Assembly: GCA_010909165.1 (NCBI GenBank)
Contig: MU008159.1
Span: 1,116,001 to 1,180,000, forward strand
DNA length: 64,000 nucleotides
DNA from: Anthoceros angustus
Taxonomy: Eukaryota > Plantae > Anthocerotophyta
Direction of reading: 5' to 3'
The translations under genes and the position numbers were made by a program. Each line of letters begins with the position of its first letter. The stretch's first letter is position 1. Positions 14,114-27,465 of this stretch are shown here, one piece after another. The notes below the pieces were generated by a model, which had not been told where the DNA came from, searched no databases, and was given only the letters and a program-made list of their open reading frames with translations.

Positions 14114-14818
14114 TTTCTGGATCTAAGCTGGAGGCACGGTTGCCAAGGAGCTCTACTACTGCGTGTAGGGTGACCCGAAGTGGTACACACGCTTCTTAGG
14201 TTGCACATCTCTAAGCCGCAAGGTGAGGACATCTCAAGCCGTCCCTCCCTTCTCCCGTCATCTGCAGGCAACATTCCACACCTTTCCATTCGCCGTAGCC
14301 TGTATCTTGACTGCCGCGATGAGTTATGGCCCGATTGGAGCAATCACCCTTAAAGCTCTCAAGAGCTGGGCATTCGTCCATATTCCCGGACAATCTGGCA
14401 GAGCTGAAACTCATCCCCGCAGTTACTTTGCAGCAAAAATTTCCTCATCGCTTTACTTGGTCGGACCCCGCTTCATGCCATAATTGCCATTGTAGCCATT
14501 TCGATTCGCAAAAAGAGAGTCATGATGGGAGACCTTCCGAAGGATTATAGAATCTCTGGGCACTCGGAGTCAAAGGTGGCGATGGATAATGGAGGCTTTC
14601 GGTACACTGGTATTTCAATTGCTATATATGTAGATATCCATACGATTAGGCTAGGTTTAGGGCTTTTCCTCAATTTCGGATTCGGATCCCGGAGTTGGTC
14701 GATATGACCGGATGCCCCTTCCAACCACGGATCAGGTGGCATGCGAAGAATCAACACGGGAATGTTACTGATTTGAAGGCTGTGGGTCGTGGGCTTTCCA
14801 GAAGCTGGCTGTTGTAAC

Positions 14819-16768
14819 ATGTTTGGGAGGCTTCGGCGGTTTATGCTGGGTAGACTGATAGATCAGGTCCCTTCTAGAGCGGTTTCAGTGTATCAGCTCA
14901 GAAGACATGCAGCAGCAAAAGAGCATCCCGAGTTCAAGATAGAGCGGAAGGGAAACACGTTCATTTTGCAGCCAAATTCTTCGTCTGCTTGTCGCTCTGT
15001 GGACAAAGTATGCAGCTTGATTCAGCGGGGTGCTGTCAGCGTGGATGCTCTGGAGTCTCTGAGTTTACGCTTGTCTTCATACCACGTTGTAGAGGTCTTG
15101 AAACGTGAGATAGACACAGATGCAGCTGTTTGCTTTTTCAAATGGGCGAAGGAGAAAATTAGGGGGAAGCTCAGCAAGTCTGCTTACACAAAAATGATCA
15201 AGATTTTTGCTGATGCTGGTCGCTTCAGTGATGTTTGGAGACTGCTGGACGACATGAGCAACAATAGTGTTGAGATTGCAGATGTAACGTTCTGGACACT
15301 GATTAAGGGATACTGTAAATTAGGTGACACGACTGAAGCAGTGTACACGCTAAAACACATGGAGCAATATGGATGCAAGCCAACCACGGCGATGTGTAAC
15401 TACGTCATGAACGTGTCTTACAACAGTGGGTGCCGTGAAAAAGCTGAAAATTTGTACGGGCAAATGTTGGAATTAGGTTGTGTCCCTGATTGCTTCACCC
15501 ATTGCATTCGAATGGACAACTTCACGAAAGCTGGGGATGTTGATGCAGCTTGCACAGCTTTTCAAGCAATGAAGGACCAAGGATTCAAGCCGAATGCAGC
15601 AATGTACAGCAGCTTGATTGATTGTCTTGGTAGGGCTGGAAATTGGGAAGCAGCGAGCAATTTGTTTGAGGACATGAAGGCTAATGGGGTTGATGCCAAC
15701 TTGATTGTTTACAGTGCCCTTCTTCACAGCCTGGCTGCTGCAGGGAGGTCAGATGACGCTTACAGGCTTTTTCAGGACATGAGGAGGGCTGGCCTTGAAC
15801 CAACAGTGTTTACATACACTGGACTGATTACCGGCCTCATTAAAGTCAACTCTGTTCAGCGTAACTGGGCATTCCTTCTCGAGCTGGTGGAAGTGGGATT
15901 CAGTTCTGGCCCTGGGTGTGATTTTGATCCTTTCCTGTATATCCTCTCAAGTCTCCGCAAGTTAGGAAAAACAGACCTTGCGTGGGTGTTTTTGAAGGAG
16001 GTAAAAGCTGGTGGACACAAAATCAATTTCAATTCGTACTCCACTATCTTTCATGGTTTTCTTGAGTCTTGCAATGTGGAACAAGCACTTGAATTGCTGG
16101 AGGAACTTTCCCATGTTGGTGGGAGGTCTGTTGAGGCTATGTACAACGCTCTTATCAGCTGTCTTGGGAAGCAGGGGCAAGTAGATGATGCTTGTAATGT
16201 GCTTCAGAAGATGAAGCAGAACAACTGCACACCTTCGGTCATCACGTACACTCTTCTGATAGACATTCTCGGCAAGGCAGGGGCACAACCGGCTGTGGAG
16301 AAGTTGCTGTTAGAAATGGTGCAACATGGTTGCTCGCCAAATAACCACACATTCAATGTTGTTCTTAATAACCTGACGAAGGCAGGGAATGTACCAGAAG
16401 CATTTAGAGTATTCAAAGGAATGGAGCAGCCTGATATTTTCTCATACAACATTGTTATAAATGCTCTTGGCAAGATTGGCAAGGTAGATGCAGCTTGCCA
16501 ACTGTATAAGGAGATGAAAAGTAGGGGCTGCTTGCCTGATGTCATAACTTACAACAATATCATAGCCAGCCTTGTGAAAGCAGGGAGGAAGGATCATGCT
16601 TTGGACGTTTTAAGTGAGATGGGAACAAGTGGGTGCTTTCCGAATGACATTACACGAATGATCCTTCAAAAGGCTCATTCAGAAAATAAAGCGTATGGGG
16701 ATGTGCTTGAGGTTTGCAGCAACATGATGCATCCAGGTCAACCTGCGAGCAGAAGTGCCCAGGCTTGA
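14819..16768 (+). CDS. P-class pentatricopeptide repeat protein (intronless), probably organelle-targeted
   Basis: Tandem 35-aa PPR motifs, e.g. MYSSLIDCLGRAGNWEAASNLFEDMKANGVDAN. The Arg-rich N-terminus MFGRLRRFMLGRL resembles a mitochondrial presequence. No E or DYW domain. Confidence 0.93.
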   Translation: MFGRLRRFMLGRLIDQVPSRAVSVYQLRRHAAAKEHPEFKIERKGNTFILQPNSSSACRSVDKVCSLIQRGAVSVDALESLSLRLSSYHVVEVLKREIDTDAAVCFFKWAKEKIRGKLSKSAYTKMIKIFADAGRFSDVWRLLDDMSNNSVEIADVTFWTLIKGYCKLGDTTEAVYTLKHMEQYGCKPTTAMCNYVMNVSYNSGCREKAENLYGQMLELGCVPDCFTHCIRMDNFTKAGDVDAACTAFQAMKDQGFKPNAAMYSSLIDCLGRAGNWEAASNLFEDMKANGVDANLIVYSALLHSLAAAGRSDDAYRLFQDMRRAGLEPTVFTYTGLITGLIKVNSVQRNWAFLLELVEVGFSSGPGCDFDPFLYILSSLRKLGKTDLAWVFLKEVKAGGHKINFNSYSTIFHGFLESCNVEQALELLEELSHVGGRSVEAMYNALISCLGKQGQVDDACNVLQKMKQNNCTPSVITYTLLIDILGKAGAQPAVEKLLLEMVQHGCSPNNHTFNVVLNNLTKAGNVPEAFRVFKGMEQPDIFSYNIVINALGKIGKVDAACQLYKEMKSRGCLPDVITYNNIIASLVKAGRKDHALDVLSEMGTSGCFPNDITRMILQKAHSENKAYGDVLEVCSNMMHPGQPASRSAQA

Positions 16769-17939
16769 GACCACTTCCCCTTTGCGAATGACGAAGTCAA
16801 GGCAAGGACAGGTTTTCAGCATGTGCTTCCTTGCCTTCATCCGAGGCATTCCTCATAGAGGTCTGATGTTTGCACAAATGCATCAGGATGTCCTTGACTC
16901 TCCAGTTTTTTGATTGCGTTGTATCTGGCTGCAACAGGGTATGGTACATGGCTGAGACTGCCCTAACTTGAAACAACCTTGTCTGTGGAAGGTCTTTTGC
17001 TGCTCCTGGATCAGTGGTGGTCGTCAGGGCCCCACTAGTGAGTTTAATACTCTAGCTACAGCAATTCTTGGAAATGTAAGTGCAGACTGAAACTAGGAGT
17101 GGCTGACGCTACGATCTGTCAGGTGTGGTGAGTATTAACCGTATATGTTTGTTGTGGCTCTCTCCTTGCAGCTCCTTTTAGGCTGCTCCATGCAAGGTAA
17201 TGAAGCAGCCAGGCAATCCTTGCTCCCTCACTACTGCGGCTTTGTGGACGGCGGGGTACAGTGGCAACAGTTGGCAACTCTTTTTCTGTTACGACTCTGA
17301 AGTGCTTCAAGCAGAAATTCTGGATGTGAGGAAATTGCTGTCCAAGTCCTTTCAGGAAAACTATGTCACGGAATCCTGAGGGGTCGAGGCAGCGCCTTTT
17401 AACCCAAGGAACATTTCACTTTGCGCAGATGAATCAGATTACTGTCATGTAGCATAGGCATTCTTAGGCCGAGGTACTGGCTCCTGCTAAATAGAATTAA
17501 TATATGGACCTTGCTCTTCCTGGACGTCTCGAAGAATTGTGGAGTCGTCCTCAACCTTCCCACATTCGTACTGAATTTCAGAACGCAGAAAGACTCAGTA
17601 TACGAGCGAGTAAAACCACTCATGCCGGTGTACGTCAGTATGTAGTTGACAACATTATTGGTTCACAATTTTCATTCCATTCAACAGCCCAGCTCGTCCA
17701 ACAAAAATGCTCAAGCTTGAGATCAAATTATACCCAGTAAAGCCCTGGTTTCTCATACTATCCAAAGAAGCTCGGACAATGTACTGATACCACCTTTGTC
17801 TGGGATGCTGAACTCCGTAGCAACACTCTCCAGGTACAAAATTGTTACGGTTCGCTGTTCTGAAAGGTGGCATGCAAACGAGAGTCCCCGCATACAGTCA
17901 GGCGCAATCCCATCCAACAATTTCATCTTACCACGGATA

Positions 17940-19090
17940 TCACCGGCGGCGGATACTGCGGGAGAGCCCAGGGTCCGAGGGACACTCAACCGCCATGTGC
18001 CCTCGACCACCACAGTTGTTACACACAACAACCTGCAGGCAATCCTTGCTCTTGTGGCCGGGGAGCTTGCAGTTCCGGCACACAATATCCACAAAAGCAG
18101 GCACAGCTGCTCCTCTTGTTGCACTGCCAAGTCTTGGGCAGTCACGGGCTATATGCCCAGCCTGGCTACACCCATTGCATACTGGGCTGTTAATGCAGTC
18201 TCGTGCCAGATGACCAGACTGGCGGCAGTTGTTACAAGCCTTCTCATTGGGACAATCCACTGAAACATGGCCAGGTCTGTAGCAGTTGTTGCAGAGCCTT
18301 GACTTTGGTAACCCTACTTCTTGGGCCGCACATCCTTTTGCAATGTGACCTGGCTTTCCACATACGTTGCACACAGGCTCATTATGGCATTCACTCGCAA
18401 TATGTCCAGGCTTCTTACAATTTCGGCACAGCGGCTCAGTGGGGCATGCTGCAGCAATATGCCTGTGGGACAACGCAATAGACAATCAGCACATGCAATG
18501 CCAAACTAATGAATGTAAGCAACAGACATCTACCTGCCCACTGCAAATCAGAGTCAAAAGGACGTAGTTCTACCCAGACAAACCACAGTTGTTGCAGACT
18601 GCTGCATTTGGGCAGTCCCTGGCGAAATGTCCAGACCTCCTGCAGTTGTTGCAGAGCTCCACAAGCGGCCTGCATAAAAGGAGAACCATGAGAGGAAGCC
18701 CGTGAGCGTCTGAGAGAAACAGAGGGCATGCAGGAGCCTTGGTAATGCTTGGAATCCTATGGAACCTATTCAACTTTTCACAAACCAACACAGCTGGAAC
18801 AATAACACACAACTAGTAGCATGCTAATGATAAAATATGCAGATCACAACATCGCAAGTCCAACAACAACGAGGTGTGCAAGTTAAACGGTACCTTCCAT
18901 TAGACCGAGGAAAACCACCACCGCCACCCCCACCACTACCACTTTTCTCCCTCGGAAACATCTTGTAAGGGGTACTCCGACGAAAGGCCCGTTTGCTGAC
19001 AATTCCACTTTGGATGCGACGACCAGAGCCTCGGGTCAGGTCATCCAGGCTCATACCGAGCTTAGCCTGAGTATCCAGGACAACCGACAT
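17940..19090 (-). CDS. GIS2/CNBP-like protein with 9 CCHC zinc knuckles and an ALY-like N-terminus; GC-rich copy
   Basis: Exons 19090-18894, 18669-18574 and 18462-17940 join in frame via GT-AG. There are nine CX2CX4HX4C knuckles. The N-terminus is MSVVLDTQAKLGMSLDDL...RRSTPY. A long 5' UTR intron is likely at about 20353-19113. Confidence 0.93.
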
Positions 19091-20701
19091 CCAGCCTGCT
19101 CTATAGAGGCACCTTAAATAAGTTATCAGGTGACGTGCCCTGCGTTAACCCTGATGGAATGCTTTATCCCAGAGAGGTAGAACGGTTGAATACGTCCTGA
19201 CTAAAGATTCATCCAAACTGTGCACAGCTGTCAAGTTTCTCCTCCCTTCTTCCTCCAAACCCAACAAGGCACGTCACCTCCACCTCCTTCTTCAGCCCTT
19301 CACCCTCCTCCGCTCTCCTCCTCCGTTCTCCCACAACCGATTCTCTAAGAACTACAGCAAATCCCTTTACACAGAATGGTGACTCCAACATTATGACCCA
19401 AGACATGTGTGTACTACAGTCATTCAGAAAAAGTACGCAGTAAAATGGCGCAGCCACACTTGAGAAATGGAAACGACCTACTACAGGCAACACAAGGCTA
19501 CCAACATCAGTTATAACCACATCTGCAGTGCCAGCTGCCATTCCGGCATGCAACCTAGTTTTTCACGACAAAATATATGTTAACAGCAACTCCTACATGA
19601 GGAAAGCAAAGAGTCATCCTATCTGCAAGTGCTGCAGATAGAAATACGCACCTAGATCTTGAACGAAGCGTGCACGCGGCCTATGTGAGGCACAAGGGCT
19701 ATTTCACCTGCAAAGACTTGAGCCCAGCAACCAGTCAGTATCGCAGCCAGAGCGGACCAATATACGACACTGCACGAGGGGACAAGGTCTAGCGGTGGCA
19801 TCAGGTACAGCAGGAAGCACGGAGTAGGAACATCAATCTAGCCAAGGACCTCAAATCCCCACTAACACCCAAGACACGTAAGTCAACACGATTACATGTG
19901 TCCCAGAGCTGGACATCAAAAACATCGGACTGAGCTCCGCATTCCGTCAAAAGCACGGATAACATAGAACCAAGAAACTAACCACGTTGAAGACAGTAAA
20001 GGAACAGATTCCAAATCCAAAGGCTGAGAGGAGGTGGAAATAGGGCAGACACAAGCTGCTAAGCATCAGTTCCCGCTAAGAAATAACGAGCTGGATAGCG
20101 ATAGGATAGTAGGAGATGGAAACCATTCACATTCCAACAGAGAATCAAGGAGTGGGTGGGGGGTGGCGAGGGGAGGGGGTGGCGATGCACAGAACCCTAG
20201 GTCGCGCAAGAGTGTACCATCCCAACAAGAGTCAAATGCGGCATCATTCGAGAGGACAACGGGAAGGGATAAGCCCCAAAGGTAGGGAGAGGAGATGGCT
20301 CTGGAGCACCAAGTAGAAGTAAGACAAAGCGGAGCACTCCAAGGTATGGAATACCTTACAAGTTAGGCACCCCAGCGTTGGAGCTGAGAGTCAGCAACAG
20401 CAGGTCTCACAAGGGAAGCGCTCGATTCCGCGAGCTGAACACCGCAAACTCCAAAGCGCTGAATCTCGCAGCTGATACCCCCGACGCCGCCGGGCCACTC
20501 CCTGACTGCGTACCAACACAAACCACACGGAAGACTAGGTAGGTTGTTTTTATTGCAGGAATTCCGTTCACATACAGACACAGGTATGTAGGTATAGGTA
20601 CCCAATTTTTAAATTGAGCTGGTGAGTTCTTAAATTACTATTTTTCCAAAAAGTGGTGCACTGCTGACTGTTCCGTTATCGAGAGCTGGGGCTGGCCTAT
20701 C

Positions 20702-22383
20702 TAGAGTATCCGGGCCACATCCCGGCAACTTAACCCTGGACCGGCATGTGAGGTTGTGACATTCGTACCTCAACAATTCATAGCCGCTTCTTTCTGTTTC
20801 TTCCGGTTTTCTGAGGTGTTTATTAGGTGGCAAAGACCACTAGGCATGCATGCATTAATGACCATTGATCACAAATTGAACTTGAATTTCACGTCCAGTG
20901 TTTGTCTCGCTGGACCCTCTCTCCCAAAGCTCAAGGCAACCTCTAATGTTGGGCTTATTTTCACACTTCACAATGTGTCTCACTTGTGGGTACTTCTCCC
21001 GCTAGACTCTCTCTCGTACTTGCCTGCGTGCAAATCCGAGATTAGTCTCATTCCATGCTTGGCTGGCTACTCGAAAGCCATTTGAGATGAGCCACAACAT
21101 AAACAAGACTTGGAGCCTGAATATGAAGAGGAATTGGAGCCGAGACATGAAGAGCAATTGAAGCCTATACAAGAAGAGGAATTGGAGCGTGCACATGAAT
21201 AGGATTGGGAGCCTGAGGCATTTCATAATGCCTCTATTGAATTTGATGGTGCAATAGAATTGCCGCTACAGTTGTCACACGGAAACATGGATGAAATGCA
21301 TACAGATGGACAATGTGTAGGAGTGGAGGCTCATGGTGGCCCTAGCATTACATTGCACATGTGGATGAAAAGCAAGCATTCCAAGCAGTGATGCCATCGC
21401 ACTAGGTGGGCGCATCACATAGGGCTTTTAACACGAAAGATTGACGGAGGCAGCCATGTTGCAGATATCATGTGCTTGCCTACCATGGAGAAGCTTCTCG
21501 TTGACAACTCTAAGAAGAAGAAGTCCTTTGCACATTCCCAGCTTGTAACAGTAGATGAGTGGATCACAGCAGAGGTAAGGAGGAAGGAGGAAAAGGCTGC
21601 TTTGTTAGAGGAGAAACAAAAGAGGAAGCAAACTCGTATCCAGGAAAGATTGAGGAAGGAAGAGGTTGAAGCTGAGTGGAGAAACGAAAACCCGTGGCCA
21701 ATTCCAAGCAAGGCCGAGAAGAAACTAGCTATGGCAAGGTGGAAATTTGAAGCAAGGAGGAGTCACATGCTATTCTAGCCAACAGAGCTCCAACAAATTT
21801 GCATGGAGTGAATCTCTATCCTAGAGAGCCTGCAATCTTATGCTAAGCCATCAAGCATACCAATAGAGAAATAGTGCCTTGCAAGACTGGCAAATCTGCA
21901 GCACATGAGAAAACTAATAGTCCTATAGCACTTGATGTTCTCCATGGCAACCATAGCAAATTTTGGGTTGCATTATGGAGTGTGTGTGGTGGTATGATGG
22001 ATGCCTTGTCACGGTCATGGAGCTCGCGAATCAAAAAGGCCAATGCACGCCGAAGTGTGGAGAGTTCGTTTGCATGGAGCTCGCGAATCAAAAAGGCCAA
22101 TGCACGCCGAAGTGTGGAGAGTTCGTTTGCATGTGAGAGCCTAAACGCTAGATTGGCGACATGGGTGGCGCTCAAGGTGCCGACAAGTGGAGCCAAAGAG
22201 CGTTTTCTTTGAAACCTCATGTTTCATAATTATTACATTTATGATATACTATAAAAATTAAAGATGCCAGTACTACATATTATGGTGAACCTAATTATAA
22301 TTATTTTATAATATTTTGAATTTATTTTCTATATATCAATTATTTATGACCTTAACTTGCTGGGATATGGTCAGGGTACTCTA
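20702..22383. mobile_element. Non-autonomous Tc1/mariner-pogo-like DNA transposon (imperfect ~30-bp TIRs, TA target site)
   Basis: TA-GAGTATCCGGGCCACATCCCGGCAACTTAA (20702-20733) is an imperfect inverted repeat of TTAACTTGCTGGGATATGGTCAGGGTACTC-TA (22352-22383). Internal ORF remnant 21470-21778 (SQLVTVDEWITAEVRRKEEKAALLEEKQKRKQ) resembles the charged C-terminal region of pogo-like transposases. It has internal 24-bp (~21100-21215) and 57-bp (~22017-22130) tandem duplications. Confidence 0.72.
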
Positions 22384-22859: not shown

Positions 22860-23937
22860 TCAACGTCGCATTCCTCGTGCTAACATAGGGTCTGAGGGAC
22901 ATTCTACTGCCATATGACCTCGACCTCCACAATTGTTGCATATAACAACTTGCAAGCAATCCTTACTTTTGTGCCCAGGAAGTTTGCAATTTCGACAAAC
23001 GATATCAGCAAACCCTGACACAATTGGTCCTCTTGGTGCGTTAATATTTGGGCAATCTCGAGCAATATGTCCAGTTTGACTGCATCCATTACAAACTGGA
23101 TCATTTGTACAATCACGTGCCAAATGTCCAGGTTGACGGCAATTGTTACAGGCTTTCTCATTAGGGCAATCCATTGATACATGCCCAGGTCGATAACAAT
23201 TATTACAAAGCCTTGATTTTGGTAATCCCATTTCTTGGGATGCACACCCTTTTGCAATATGACCTGATTTTCCACACATATTGCATACTGGTTCATTGTG
23301 GCATTCACTTGCAATGTGCCCCGGCTTCTTACAGTTTCTACATAGGGGCTCCGTTGGGCATACTGCTGCAATGTGTCTAGAAGAGTAGATGCAAATGCAC
23401 AATTTAGTATGAGTCAATAGATATATATAATTATATAATACATTTTAATAATAAAAAATAATATGTAAATAAAATTTGTAAGACCATACCCCGAGACACC
23501 ACAGTTATTGCATACTGCAGCGTTAGGGCAATCTCTTGCAAAATGACCGGTTCGTCGACAATTGTTACATAGTTCTAAAAGGGGTCTACAAGACATGATA
23601 AATGAGTTAGTAGAAAACCAACAAAAGGAAATAATCATGGAGATCTTGAAAACATGAAATTGAATTAAAAAAGAGAGAAAAACAATAATTATGTTCCATT
23701 TATTCAAGTTGTAAGCATGATGTCTAAAATTTTTTTGTGGTATAAAGGGCATGGATACCTGGAAGATCTATTGAAGCCACCGCCTGTCTTCTCTCTTGAA
23801 AATATTTTGTAGGGTGCACTTCGTCTAGAACCTCGTTTACTTACTACACCACTTTGCATTCGACGATTGGAGCCTCGAGAAGCAAGATCGTCGAGACTCA
23901 TGGTAAGCTTTGCCTGTGTGTTTAGGACATCCGACAT
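22860..23937 (-). CDS. GIS2/CNBP-like protein with 9 CCHC zinc knuckles and an ALY-like N-terminus; AT-rich paralog
   Basis: Exons 23937-23759, 23585-23490 and 23376-22860 have the same intron positions and phases as 17940-19090. The ORF is intact. The N-terminus is MSDVLNTQAKLTMSLDDL...RRSAPY. Confidence 0.92.
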
Positions 23938-25554
23938 CCAACCAAATTTCTAAACTCCCACTCAAAGTCAAAGAGATGAAGAATTACTATTGAAATATGT
24001 TTTTCTTCATGAAAGAAACTCCTCAAAAATTATTGAATCTCTGAGAATAAGTCATCTCATTCCTTTATCATAGTATTTGACATCAACCTTGAACGTTGTG
24101 GGATTTTCTATCTCCTCTCCTTTATATATATATGCATAAACACATGCACTCATTCGCAATATGATACACGTGTTTCTTCTCAATGACTTCTCCAATCTTT
24201 CAACTTCCCACCTATAAGTTTGTATCCCACAAAGATAGAAAATTAGGGTAAGAAGCTCGTAAAACCATGCATTGACACTACGATCTTGGAATTTAGTCAT
24301 TTCTTCTGAAATTTGGGTTATATTTTTGAATTTAACCCAATAGATATAACACATAATGAAAAACATTGTTCAAGCCTCCCAATGAGCTCAAAATGGACAA
24401 AATATGAATTGTCGCTTCATTATCTCTTGATTGTCTTCATTTCCTATTTCTTTTTTCTAACAAAATACTAAATTTGGATCCTGTTAATTGCTAGAATGAC
24501 ATTGTCTATCATATAAGTTTCCAATTTAAAAAAACTGCATCTCTTGACTTCTTCATAACTTGATATCACCCATCACTCCCCAACAACAAACTTCTAGCAA
24601 TCTTTTACTCTTCTACACCAGTCACAATCTTGCACATCATTTTCACAACAATCCACATCTTTATTTCCTTGTCAATTCACATACCTCTCCTCTCCTCTTC
24701 TCCATTCCTTTCTCTTCTCCTCTGTTGAATTTTAGAATAGAGTCACTGTATTATCTACCAAGAAATACTGAGATAATTTAGGATGTTTGTTAAAATTATG
24801 AATTGAGTTGCATACCAATGAAGATAAGATAGTGACACAAACCGTGGCCAATATCCAAAGGAAACCCTAACTGTTTTCTTGAATTGTAACTTACATAAGA
24901 AAACCTTAGATGTCTAATGAGTTAATGAACTATGGTAATACTTTGTTCATAATATATATACATATAGGTATGTATAATTTTAAATTATATTAATGAAAAA
25001 TAGCACCATACACAAGTAATTTCCAAGTTTTATACCGCAATTGTATGTCGAGAATACAACATACTTAAGTAGAACTTGTAACCACTTGTTATGCTTAATG
25101 AGAGAGAAGAGATGGGCTCACTCCGTCTCTCCTCTCTCCATAAAAATTGTGACCACTTGGTACAATGACACAATATTGGCTGGGAGGGACATCTCAAACT
25201 CATCCAAATATAAATATACTCTATGATAGGAATGCATAAAAATGTTTCATACTATGATTCCATATATCATTGTAAAAGTTGAACTACATAAAAAGATGCC
25301 CCACAAGATTGGTTCTATCTTTTATGTGCAACTCTTATAATTATTACTCTTATGTGTAACATGCAAGGCCTATAAGATGAGGGCCTTATATGTTATATAT
25401 TTTTATTTATAAGATATATTATAATATATAAAAATAGTTATGAATATAGGAAGGTATATAAGAATGGTGGCTACGGTTATACCACCCTAAGGAATTTATT
25501 TGTAAGCGGTGGACATGGATGATAGATGGGCGTTTGTTAGAGAATCGCCGGATG

Positions 25555-27465
25555 AATGACACATCGGTTTGGGCGCTGGTGGTGACCGGCGCCAGCGCCC
25601 TGTTGCTTGTCCTGCGCAACTTCAACAACTGGTATTTCTCCGTGTGTGATCTTCCAGGCGGGATTAGAATGCCACCGGGCGACATGGGCCTGCTTTCGAT
25701 CGGCGAGATACTGGAGTTCTGGCGCACCTTCAACCACAATCCAGATGGGTTCATCCAGCGCAGAGTTCAGAAGTGGGTCCTTCTGTAAACTTCCGAGCTC
25801 CGTGAATCTGTGACTTGCGTTTTGGGCTGAATGCTTGATTGGATAATTTGCAAGTGGCATTGTCGATTTACTTGCAGGTACGGAAATGACGTAATTCTCA
25901 AGTCGCATTTGTTCGGCATCATCACCGTGTCCACGGACCTGACCAGATTCGCTCTGTGCGACGACAATATGTTTCTCCTGTCGGCTCGAGGTCATAGTCA
26001 TGAGCTCGCGCTCCTGCCAGAAGGCAAGCTTAATTGCGTGACGCTTGTTCTCACCTGTTGCATCCCGTGGTTGCCGCCTGCAGCTGATGTTTAACATTAT
26101 CGTGTCGTCGTTTATTTCTAAGCTTTGAGCCCAGCGAGAAGACCAAAATTATGATGGAGCAGATGGAGCGATACATGGCTGGAGTTCGAGCATTTCCCCT
26201 CTACATCCCCGGAACCACGCACTACAAGGCTGTACATGTGACAATCTTCCTCTCGATGTGCTCATCGATCGCCATGCATGGACATGGCTGTTTCTTGATT
26301 TTGCCTAAATTTGTTAGCACTGGAAACCAACTCGTCGGCATGCATTGGGCTTCATGTTAATTGCGGTGGTAGGGCTTTCGCAATGTGTCTGCTATTGTCG
26401 TTGATGAGATCAAGGAGCGATGGGAGAGGAAAATTCACAAGCCGGATTCTCTGCACGAGCTTATGATCGCAAAAGATGAGGATGGGCTGAATTTGACCAA
26501 CGAAGAACTGAGCGACAATATGGTTGGATTTCTGCTTGGGGGCCTCCGGTCGGTCCACATCGTCTCTAATCATGTGGCTTAAGCTCCTTCTCGCAAATCA
26601 CCCCAAAGTGAAGGACAAACTCTGGGTGAGTGAGCTTGAGCCAACGACCTTCAGAAGGTGTGCAGGTTCTGTGTGCATGTCCCCAGGCTGTAAGCTAAGT
26701 GCGTGTCCCCTAAGCTGTTCGCAACTCCAATGAAGGAGAGTATCTCGACCTCAACGACATCAACACCCGTGCCAAGTACACCTACAATGTAAGACCTGTA
26801 GAGCAAATTTTCTCAAGCCTGGGGGTTGGCTTGTGAAAGAAACAGCGTCTTAACCTACACCACAAATCAGGTCCTCGGATTGGGAAATTTATTTGCAGGT
26901 CTGGACCGAGGGCCTGAGGTGGATAACCCTTTCGCCTGTCTCATTTCGTTTTGGTACTCAAGCAAAGGTGTGCATACAGCAACCGTCTATCTGCATCGTT
27001 CTCGGGCTCTTTGCAGACACCAGAAAGCCCCAAATCTGGGCATTGCAACCCATGCTCTTGTCTGTGATGTTACCCAAAGGGTGAAAGATTCTGGCATGGT
27101 CTCGTGTATCCCATACATCTTCTACCAATTTCGAAGATCCCTCTTCGGAAGATGAAATTAAACCATCTCCGGCAGTTCCAAGAATGTTCTGATTGTATGT
27201 GAGTCACATGCTCGCTGCAGAAAGCTGAAGACCGTTCACGGCTAACGCAATTTTTGATTCCCTTTGGAGGCGGTGCCAGGAAATGTCCAGGCAAGTACAA
27301 AGAGGGATGGCTTAGATGTGTTCCTTTGCAACTTCAAATCTTTCCAACTTGCTCAACCATTGGTCTGCATGCTCTGATAAGGCTTGCTTGTGATCAATGC
27401 AGGAACATTCTTGACAAGGTTAAATAGCACCATGATTCTACACTACCTCAGCGTGGATTATGAGT
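25555..27465 (+). pseudogene. Cytochrome P450, CYP85 clan (CYP88/CYP729-like), probable pseudogene
   Basis: Membrane anchor plus MPPGDMG..IGE, YG..ILKSHLFG, I-helix ELSDNMVGFLLGG, ExxR (TEGLRW) and heme motif PFGGGARKCPG. There is a frameshift right after GGLRS (~26550). Middle and terminal coding segments appear missing or disrupted. Confidence 0.8.

Follow-up and report, generated by a model that had tools for sequence, protein, structure and literature searches.

A predicted UAP56-binding motif at the N-terminus of two nine-knuckle GIS2-like proteins of Anthoceros angustus

Genes A and B form a minus-strand tandem pair in a 64-kb stretch of the Anthoceros angustus genome (GenBank assembly GCA_010909165.1, contig MU008159.1, positions 1,116,001 to 1,180,000, hereafter the window). 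They are expressed paralogues, carry an N-terminal SLDD motif and a PY motif, and belong to the plant nine-knuckle GIS2-like family rather than to ALY. The SLDD element resembles the UAP56-binding motif (UBM), and its combination with a knuckle array is real, conserved and apparently undescribed. We give about even odds (a probability near 0.5) to the reading that both proteins are nuclear single-UBM adaptors, which would be imported through the PY motif, bind RNA with the knuckles, dock on the RecA2 lobe of UAP56 through SLDD, and add UBM valency without contacting the exon junction complex (EJC).

The first coding stretch of each gene encodes KL(G/T)MSLDDL, then a basic tract and RRS(T/A)PY (RRSTPY, residues 37-42, in gene A), as an earlier note on this DNA had described (Table 1). 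SLDD/E is the published UBM of ALYREF, SKAR, UIF and LUZP4, the C-terminal type being LDxxLD, and the human proteins found in the same study to carry SLDD/E were, in the part of the paper accessible to us, all export factors (PMC4797287). Against the N-terminal UBM (N-UBM) peptide of human ALYREF, ADKMDMSLDDIIK, printed like that of Arabidopsis ALY2, SGGLDMSLDDIIK, in two proteomics papers of which extracts were available, the core K-L-x-M-S-L-D-D-L showed six identical residues out of nine (K, M, S, L, D, D) and two conservative replacements. The motif is N-terminal and followed by an Arg/Gly tract, the same arrangement as in ALYREF and LUZP4. With the residue composition of the open reading frames (ORFs) of the window, MSLD[DE][LI] within the first 30 residues has a rough chance of 2e-6 per protein, or 0.07 per 30,000 random proteins, and the back-translated motif was found at two places only in the window, the heads of A and B (chance expectation 0.01). 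The motif is thus, at the sequence level, a good match to the published SLDD/E element and a predicted UBM, the type to which the earlier note had assigned it.

PDB sequence searches with the gene B head, a three-row profile and a 20-residue motif peptide gave no match at E<=10 in any case, and the Pfam scan of the A and B heads gave one sub-cut-off match to a PRD1 spike and no FYTT domain (PF07078) at E<=10. Among language-model look-alikes of the head of L001, a metagenomic relative described below, unnamed short proteins ranked first once knuckle clusters were excluded (0.90-0.93); the first named clusters were a streptophyte UAP56-interacting factor (0.84, with FYTT on 45% of its members) and CHTOP (0.75), both below 0.9 and therefore leads only. 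A whole-protein atlas search with the Chara protein, also introduced below, recovered generic knuckle clusters (0.77-0.81), and the Atlas structure model of that protein had a predicted template modelling score (pTM) of 0.23.

The two proteins are 271 (A) and 263 (B) residues long and each is encoded by three coding exons; all four coding introns are GT-AG introns in phase 2. Both contain nine C-x2-C-x4-H-x4-C knuckles, recovered as Pfam zf-CCHC matches. The proteins are 84% identical, with more identity in the knuckles (87%) than in the head (75%). Synonymous sites were saturated (proportion of synonymous differences, pS, 0.81 overall and 0.80-0.82 by part), and nonsynonymous divergence (dN) was 0.10 overall, with a higher value for the head (0.17) than for the knuckles (0.08); we conclude that purifying selection acts on both genes and that they duplicated long ago. 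Outside their coding parts, A and B showed no similarity. Gene B lies in AT-rich DNA (22860-24400), with a GC content at third codon positions (GC3) of 0.29 and an intron GC of 0.25, versus 0.52 and 0.44 in gene A; despite this AT-rich setting, its protein branch was shorter than that of gene A (0.074 versus 0.14).

Both coding introns of gene A were spliced exactly as modelled in contigs of four out of four runs. These contigs reach 19364 or 19477 and then splice to non-coding exons at 19652-19716 and 20355/20360-20507, so that 18894..19090 is the first coding stretch and not exon 1, as it had been called; its coding content had been read correctly. Three of eight runs covered gene B (X2, X16 and X21), each derived from a related organism and matching at 90-99% identity; the lack of cover in the other five (X1, X3, X7, X13, X19) proves nothing about its expression. 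Intron 1 of gene B was joined exactly in X2, and intron 2 was joined in X2 and X16 with two letters differing at the joint. The runs are not recorded as RNA, the GT-AG joints showing that their templates were spliced, and their depths, which carry no tissue label, cannot rank the expression of A against that of B. The possibility that the genes are artefacts or pseudogenes was rejected: the frames are intact, dN is far below the synonymous divergence, and the contigs are spliced.

The conservation of the motif between the two paralogues, to which the earlier note appealed, says little by itself, the head being the less conserved part; to judge from the alignments, the real evidence is its reach out to Chara braunii. 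A search with the last exon of gene A returned 62 proteins, only one of which, Chara CBR_g26415, has [ML]SLD[DE], many of the other 61 being fragments without the first exon. The Chara protein has a head like those of A and B followed by nine knuckles. Its identity to gene A was 9/11 over residues 8-18, 11/19 over the basic/PY part, 6/24 in the linker and 94/158 over non-ligand knuckle residues. A profile of three heads recovered six proteins at E<=0.001 among 1.84 billion representatives, in a search that masks any relative lying within 50% identity of another representative. Besides Chara, these were five unnamed open frames; all six have the motif, and none is named or recognisable as an ALY or UIEF N-terminus. 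A weak search of the gene A head against longer proteins, which missed Chara too, gave no match at E<=10 among 1170 candidates.

Scanning metagenomes with the head revealed 12 loci; in nine, the head is followed on its own strand by knuckle exons, and the contigs of the other three end too early. Among the nine, L001 is an intron-free full frame of 276 residues with nine knuckles, and in all four moss-like genomic loci checked both introns lie at the codon positions of the window genes. A 91-residue frame on a 44.8-kb contig (P0067) shows a more divergent head that contains MSLDEL and RRSAPY. Comparison of the window with eight moss-like loci gave no shared neighbours beyond low-identity matches at three other places of the window. 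Viral contigs yielded no locus for the head and none for a UAP56 pattern. Three contigs of prokaryotic assemblies (L013, L014, L016) bear eukaryote-type UAP56 genes, probably by contamination.

The plant basic consensus for a PY nuclear localisation signal (PY-NLS), [KR][KR].{3,20}[KRH].{1,5}PY, for which TRN1-dependent import has been shown (preprint, seen in part), is matched by A, B, L001 and Chara ahead of the folded part. To judge from sequence, a better argument for a PY-NLS is the retention of PY from Chara to angiosperms. In a hand-picked set of 21 relatives with a recognisable first exon (19 angiosperm-type and two of the fern Adiantum; fragments and mis-called starts excluded), PY precedes the knuckles in 20 (18/19 angiosperm-type and both fern heads). 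The spacer between SLDD and PY varied from 23 to 52 residues across relatives while both motifs were retained, as expected for two separate linear motifs. An R-x-x-PY following a basic tract in plant ALY proteins, mentioned in the earlier note, could not be confirmed. Transportin-1 cargo lists include human ALYREF, at a high rank, and CNBP (PMC5305215, consulted in part).

The N-UBM is reported to bind the RecA2 lobe of UAP56 (R276, A302, E309) with an affinity of 28 uM and, with SARNP, to stabilise RNA-clamped UAP56 (PMC12823420, accessible portion). In the alignment, rice UAP56 keeps two of these three residues, R276 and E309. Modelling with UAP56, a check proposed in the earlier note, was done with rice RecA2 (P0079) as a stand-in: the co-fold with gene A residues 1-45 scored 0.53 against 0.27 for the best control, with a contact agreement between runs of at least 84% and a predicted local confidence (pLDDT) of the partner of at least 51. 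The pass mark was reached by 51/78 solved versus 2/108 mismatched microbial pairs, and by 39/65 solved versus 2/126 unrelated eukaryotic pairs. The predicted binding of SLDD to UAP56 was thus weakly supported.

A number of points weigh against a UAP56-bound nuclear role. Scores of 0.60 or less accounted for just five of the 78 solved complexes but for all four passing mismatches; the calibration contained no peptides, alignments were not used, the output lacked an interface, and the helicase is from rice; moreover, the complex of UAP56 with the ALYREF N-UBM is already solved, so that the pass may reflect memory. Rice UAP56 has Glu in place of the third site residue, human A302. Compared with both ALY peptides, the Asp before Met is replaced by G, T or S and the second Ile by T, A or R, and one metagenome locus (L012) has SLED. 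By chance, about 25 of 30,000 random proteins would carry SLD[DE] alone within their first 30 residues. WxHD and C-terminal LDxxLD are absent from the full proteins A, B, L001 and Chara, no UCM was found in the examined proteins, and there is no RRM, since Pfam scans of the window exons and of the full orthologue L001 gave only zf-CCHC families above cut-off, which bears out the RRM-less, nine-knuckle architecture first described. The UBM-bearing sequences are largely redundant and represent about four independent lineages, Chara and the window included. SLD[DE] was found in none of the 21 fern and angiosperm heads (0/19 angiosperm-type, 0/2 fern), where the motif is dispensable, so that its presence in orthologues, proposed as a check, held for Chara and the moss-like loci only. 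Finally, 1,490 Arabidopsis genes match the PY consensus (preprint, seen in part), and the RR-to-R linker of gene A, 11-12 residues, is shorter than the reported optimum of 16-18.

Some of these points would also suit a cytoplasmic protein of CNBP/Gis2 type, active in translation or stress granules, in which the SLDD helix binds a partner other than UAP56 or serves shuttling only. We consider this the best of the alternatives, possible but distinctly the less probable. Most of the protein consists of knuckles of the CNBP/Gis2 type, and the fact that yeast Gis2 and human CNBP act on mRNPs of the cytoplasm and are reported with PABP, P-bodies and stress granules (PMC3528734, accessible portion) also speaks against a nuclear function. 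The motif lacks two residues common to both ALY peptides, and it is not single-purpose, the SLDD helix of yeast Yra1 being also predicted to touch Mex67 (preprint, available in part). The PY motif cannot separate the two readings, CNBP being also a transportin-1 cargo; its retention in 18/19 angiosperm-type and both fern heads nevertheless points to a nuclear phase. The position, sequence and surroundings of the motif all fit an N-UBM, the motif is better conserved than the knuckle residues, and the weak co-fold pass with RecA2 likewise favours UAP56 as a partner.

Alternatively, the proteins could bind UAP56 in the nucleus and sort RNA to decay, retention or splicing control, in the manner of Air1/2, instead of promoting export. 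Human UAP56-bound RNPs are also passed to a PAXT/exosome route (PMC13391367, partly accessible) and the multi-knuckle Air1/2 are described as nuclear decay cofactors in the portions of the literature available; A and B lack the EJC-reading elements of ALY, and the angiosperm head became RS-rich (arginine/serine-rich), like splicing factors. We nonetheless find such a role unlikely: the known SLDD/E proteins are export factors, and no decay-complex motif turned up, none having been searched for.

The earlier proposal that the first exon of an ALY gene was shuffled onto a knuckle gene, A and B being somatic and germline versions, is very improbable, for although a phase-2 intron parts the head from the knuckles, the UBM-then-Arg/Gly order resembles ALY, and gene B has a lower GC3 and is covered in fewer runs, none of the six profile matches (E<=0.001) was recognisable as ALY or UIEF, PDB gave nothing at E<=10, a nine-residue motif can arise in place, the runs carry no tissue information, angiosperms keep the homologous exon with PY, and the layout, being present in Chara, puts any such event before land plants.

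The layout of head plus knuckles is, on this comparison, ancient and predates land plants; a lineage-specific fusion was rejected on the same ground. If Chara is taken as the outgroup, the simplest history places the motif in the common ancestor of Chara and land plants and has it eroded in the line to ferns and seed plants, the same exon probably turning RS-rich in angiosperms. The examined angiosperm heads are indeed mostly RS-rich, as the earlier note had stated. The loss is deduced from angiosperms and a single fern genus, and the tree does not settle whether the A/B pair joins the moss-like clade or the fern/angiosperm clade. In three angiosperm models (P0019, P0038, P0054), the last Arg of the head is joined directly to the His of knuckle 2, from which we infer that both introns are common to angiosperms and the window genes.

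The sequence context of the start codons was also recorded. At the first ATG (19090 in A, 23937 in B) T occupies position -3 in six of six genes checked (A, B, L001-L004), and at the Met of the motif itself (19054 in A, 23901 in B) a purine does so in the same six genes. From the motif Met to PY there are 28-30 residues in A, B, L001 and Chara; from the apparent fern and angiosperm starts to PY the distance is similar, 23-26. Leaky scanning could yield a protein form with half of the motif and may be a route of motif loss. More speculatively, and with considerable doubt, these proteins might represent an ancestral third class of UAP56 adaptors that picks its RNAs by nine knuckles and not by the EJC; the fern/seed-plant line would have dropped the first start and begun at the motif Met, and angiosperms would have exchanged the UAP56 tag for an RS segment within the same exon, a switch from UBM-type to SR-type.

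Returning to the single-UBM nuclear adaptor, transportin 1 would import the protein through the PY motif and the nine knuckles would grip single-stranded RNA, as in CNBP/Gis2. CNBP and Gis2 prefer single-stranded G-rich RNA. The SLDD helix may then dock transiently and with low affinity on UAP56 RecA2 and help to hold UAP56 clamped on RNA, like the ALYREF N-UBM. The proteins would play a supporting part in the packaging of messenger ribonucleoproteins (mRNPs) or in exporting certain transcripts, and would raise the UBM valency of selected mRNPs. The EJC contact of ALYREF runs through WxHD and the RRM (PMC7614608, seen in part), and A and B would work without this type of contact.

Plants have the TREX (transcription-export) complex and UAP56 and no NXF1/TAP orthologue, and Arabidopsis plants devoid of ALY1-4 and of UIEF1/2 are still able to grow (PMC8421220, accessible portion); the list of plant export adaptors may therefore be incomplete. 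If our reading is correct, a multi-knuckle protein carrying a UBM would extend that list by an adaptor whose RNA-binding module is probably sequence-selective. It would also provide a first mechanism for a family known in plants by annotation only and connect nuclear mRNP assembly with the CNBP/Gis2 family. The motif being present in non-flowering lineages and absent from the examined angiosperms, motif searches in Arabidopsis would miss such proteins.

Table 1. Coordinates of gene A and gene B features in the window.
Feature	Position	Strand	Content or basis
Gene A, first coding stretch, residues 1-66	18894..19090	-	197 nt, ATG to phase-2 GT donor; encodes the N-UBM-like motif, then basic tract, PY motif and Gly linker
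Gene A, N-UBM-like motif KLGMSLDDL, residues 10-18	19037..19063	-	sequence
Gene A, basic tract and candidate PY-NLS, RR...RRSTPY, residues 24-42	18965..19021	-	sequence
Gene A, second coding exon	18574..18669	-	96 nt, phase 2-2; knuckle 1 and first half of knuckle 2
Gene A, last coding exon	17940..18462	-	rest of knuckle 2, knuckles 3-9; stop 17942-17940
Gene A, 5' leader joined to start-codon exon	19091..19477	-	exon start at 19364 or 19477, depending on the acceptor
Gene A, non-coding leader exon	19652..19716	-	contigs
Gene A, furthest-upstream leader exon observed	20355..20507	-	donor at 20355 or 20360
Gene B, first coding stretch, residues 1-60	23759..23937	-	179 nt; KLTMSLDDL, basic tract, RRSAPY
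Gene B, second coding exon	23490..23585	-	96 nt; sequence
Gene B, last coding exon	22860..23376	-	part of knuckle 2 through knuckle 9, stop

The second coding exon is symmetric (phase 2-2) in both genes, making in-frame skipping possible, and several angiosperm gene models are without it. The leader of gene A measures about 490-600 nt, with alternative acceptors and donors, and its long form brings upstream ORFs of 10 and 65 codons. Contigs of gene A continue beyond its 3' end (about 17100-17900), suggesting convergent transcript overlap; a P-class PPR gene lies upstream in the window, on the opposite strand (14777-16768, plus strand). The spacer between A and B contains a direct duplication of about 59 nt at 22016-22133. 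On the plus strand, 25462-27427 holds broken-looking pieces that we take to be cytochrome P450-like from their motifs, among them PFGGG.R.CPG near 27230; Pfam scans of three other pieces gave no match.

Compared with known systems, A and B share with ALY/REF/Yra1 proteins (human ALYREF, Arabidopsis ALY1-4) the N-terminal MSLDD followed by an Arg/Gly-rich tract; they differ in having nine CCHC knuckles instead of RRM, WxHD and C-terminal LDxxLD, on which grounds ALY membership was rejected, and profile searches detected no homology of the heads beyond the motif (E<=0.001). RRM-less adaptors with a single UBM have already been described, namely UIF/FYTTD1, LUZP4 and Arabidopsis UIEF1/2 (PMC4344508, PMC8421220, both seen in part), so that the adaptor kind itself is not new; the novelty that stands is the union of UBM and knuckles. 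Like proteins of this type, A and B have one predicted N-UBM and an arginine-rich region without RRM; UIF and UIEF proper differ by their FYTT domain, and none of these adaptors is described with a knuckle array in the accessible parts of the sources. A UBM combined with a knuckle array was described in none of the titles and abstract openings seen, subscription papers being mostly beyond reach. Papers naming UAP56 together with CNBP or Gis2 showed no link between them, being circRNA and other reviews or, to judge by title, unrelated. Yeast Gis2 and human CNBP share tandem CCHC knuckles with A and B, Gis2 differing by its seven knuckles and by its description, in the text available, as cytoplasmic. 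The closest relatives are the plant GIS2-like nine-knuckle proteins (legume clade D, PMC11099236, seen in part; Vitis, Olea and Rhododendron matches), whose function in plants is, in that text, annotation only. Unlike A and B, their angiosperm heads are RS-rich without SLD[DE]; their array is orthologous, with 49-58% identity over the last exon of gene A among named full-length matches, and they have, like A and B, nine knuckles, PY ahead of the first knuckle and, it appears, both introns.
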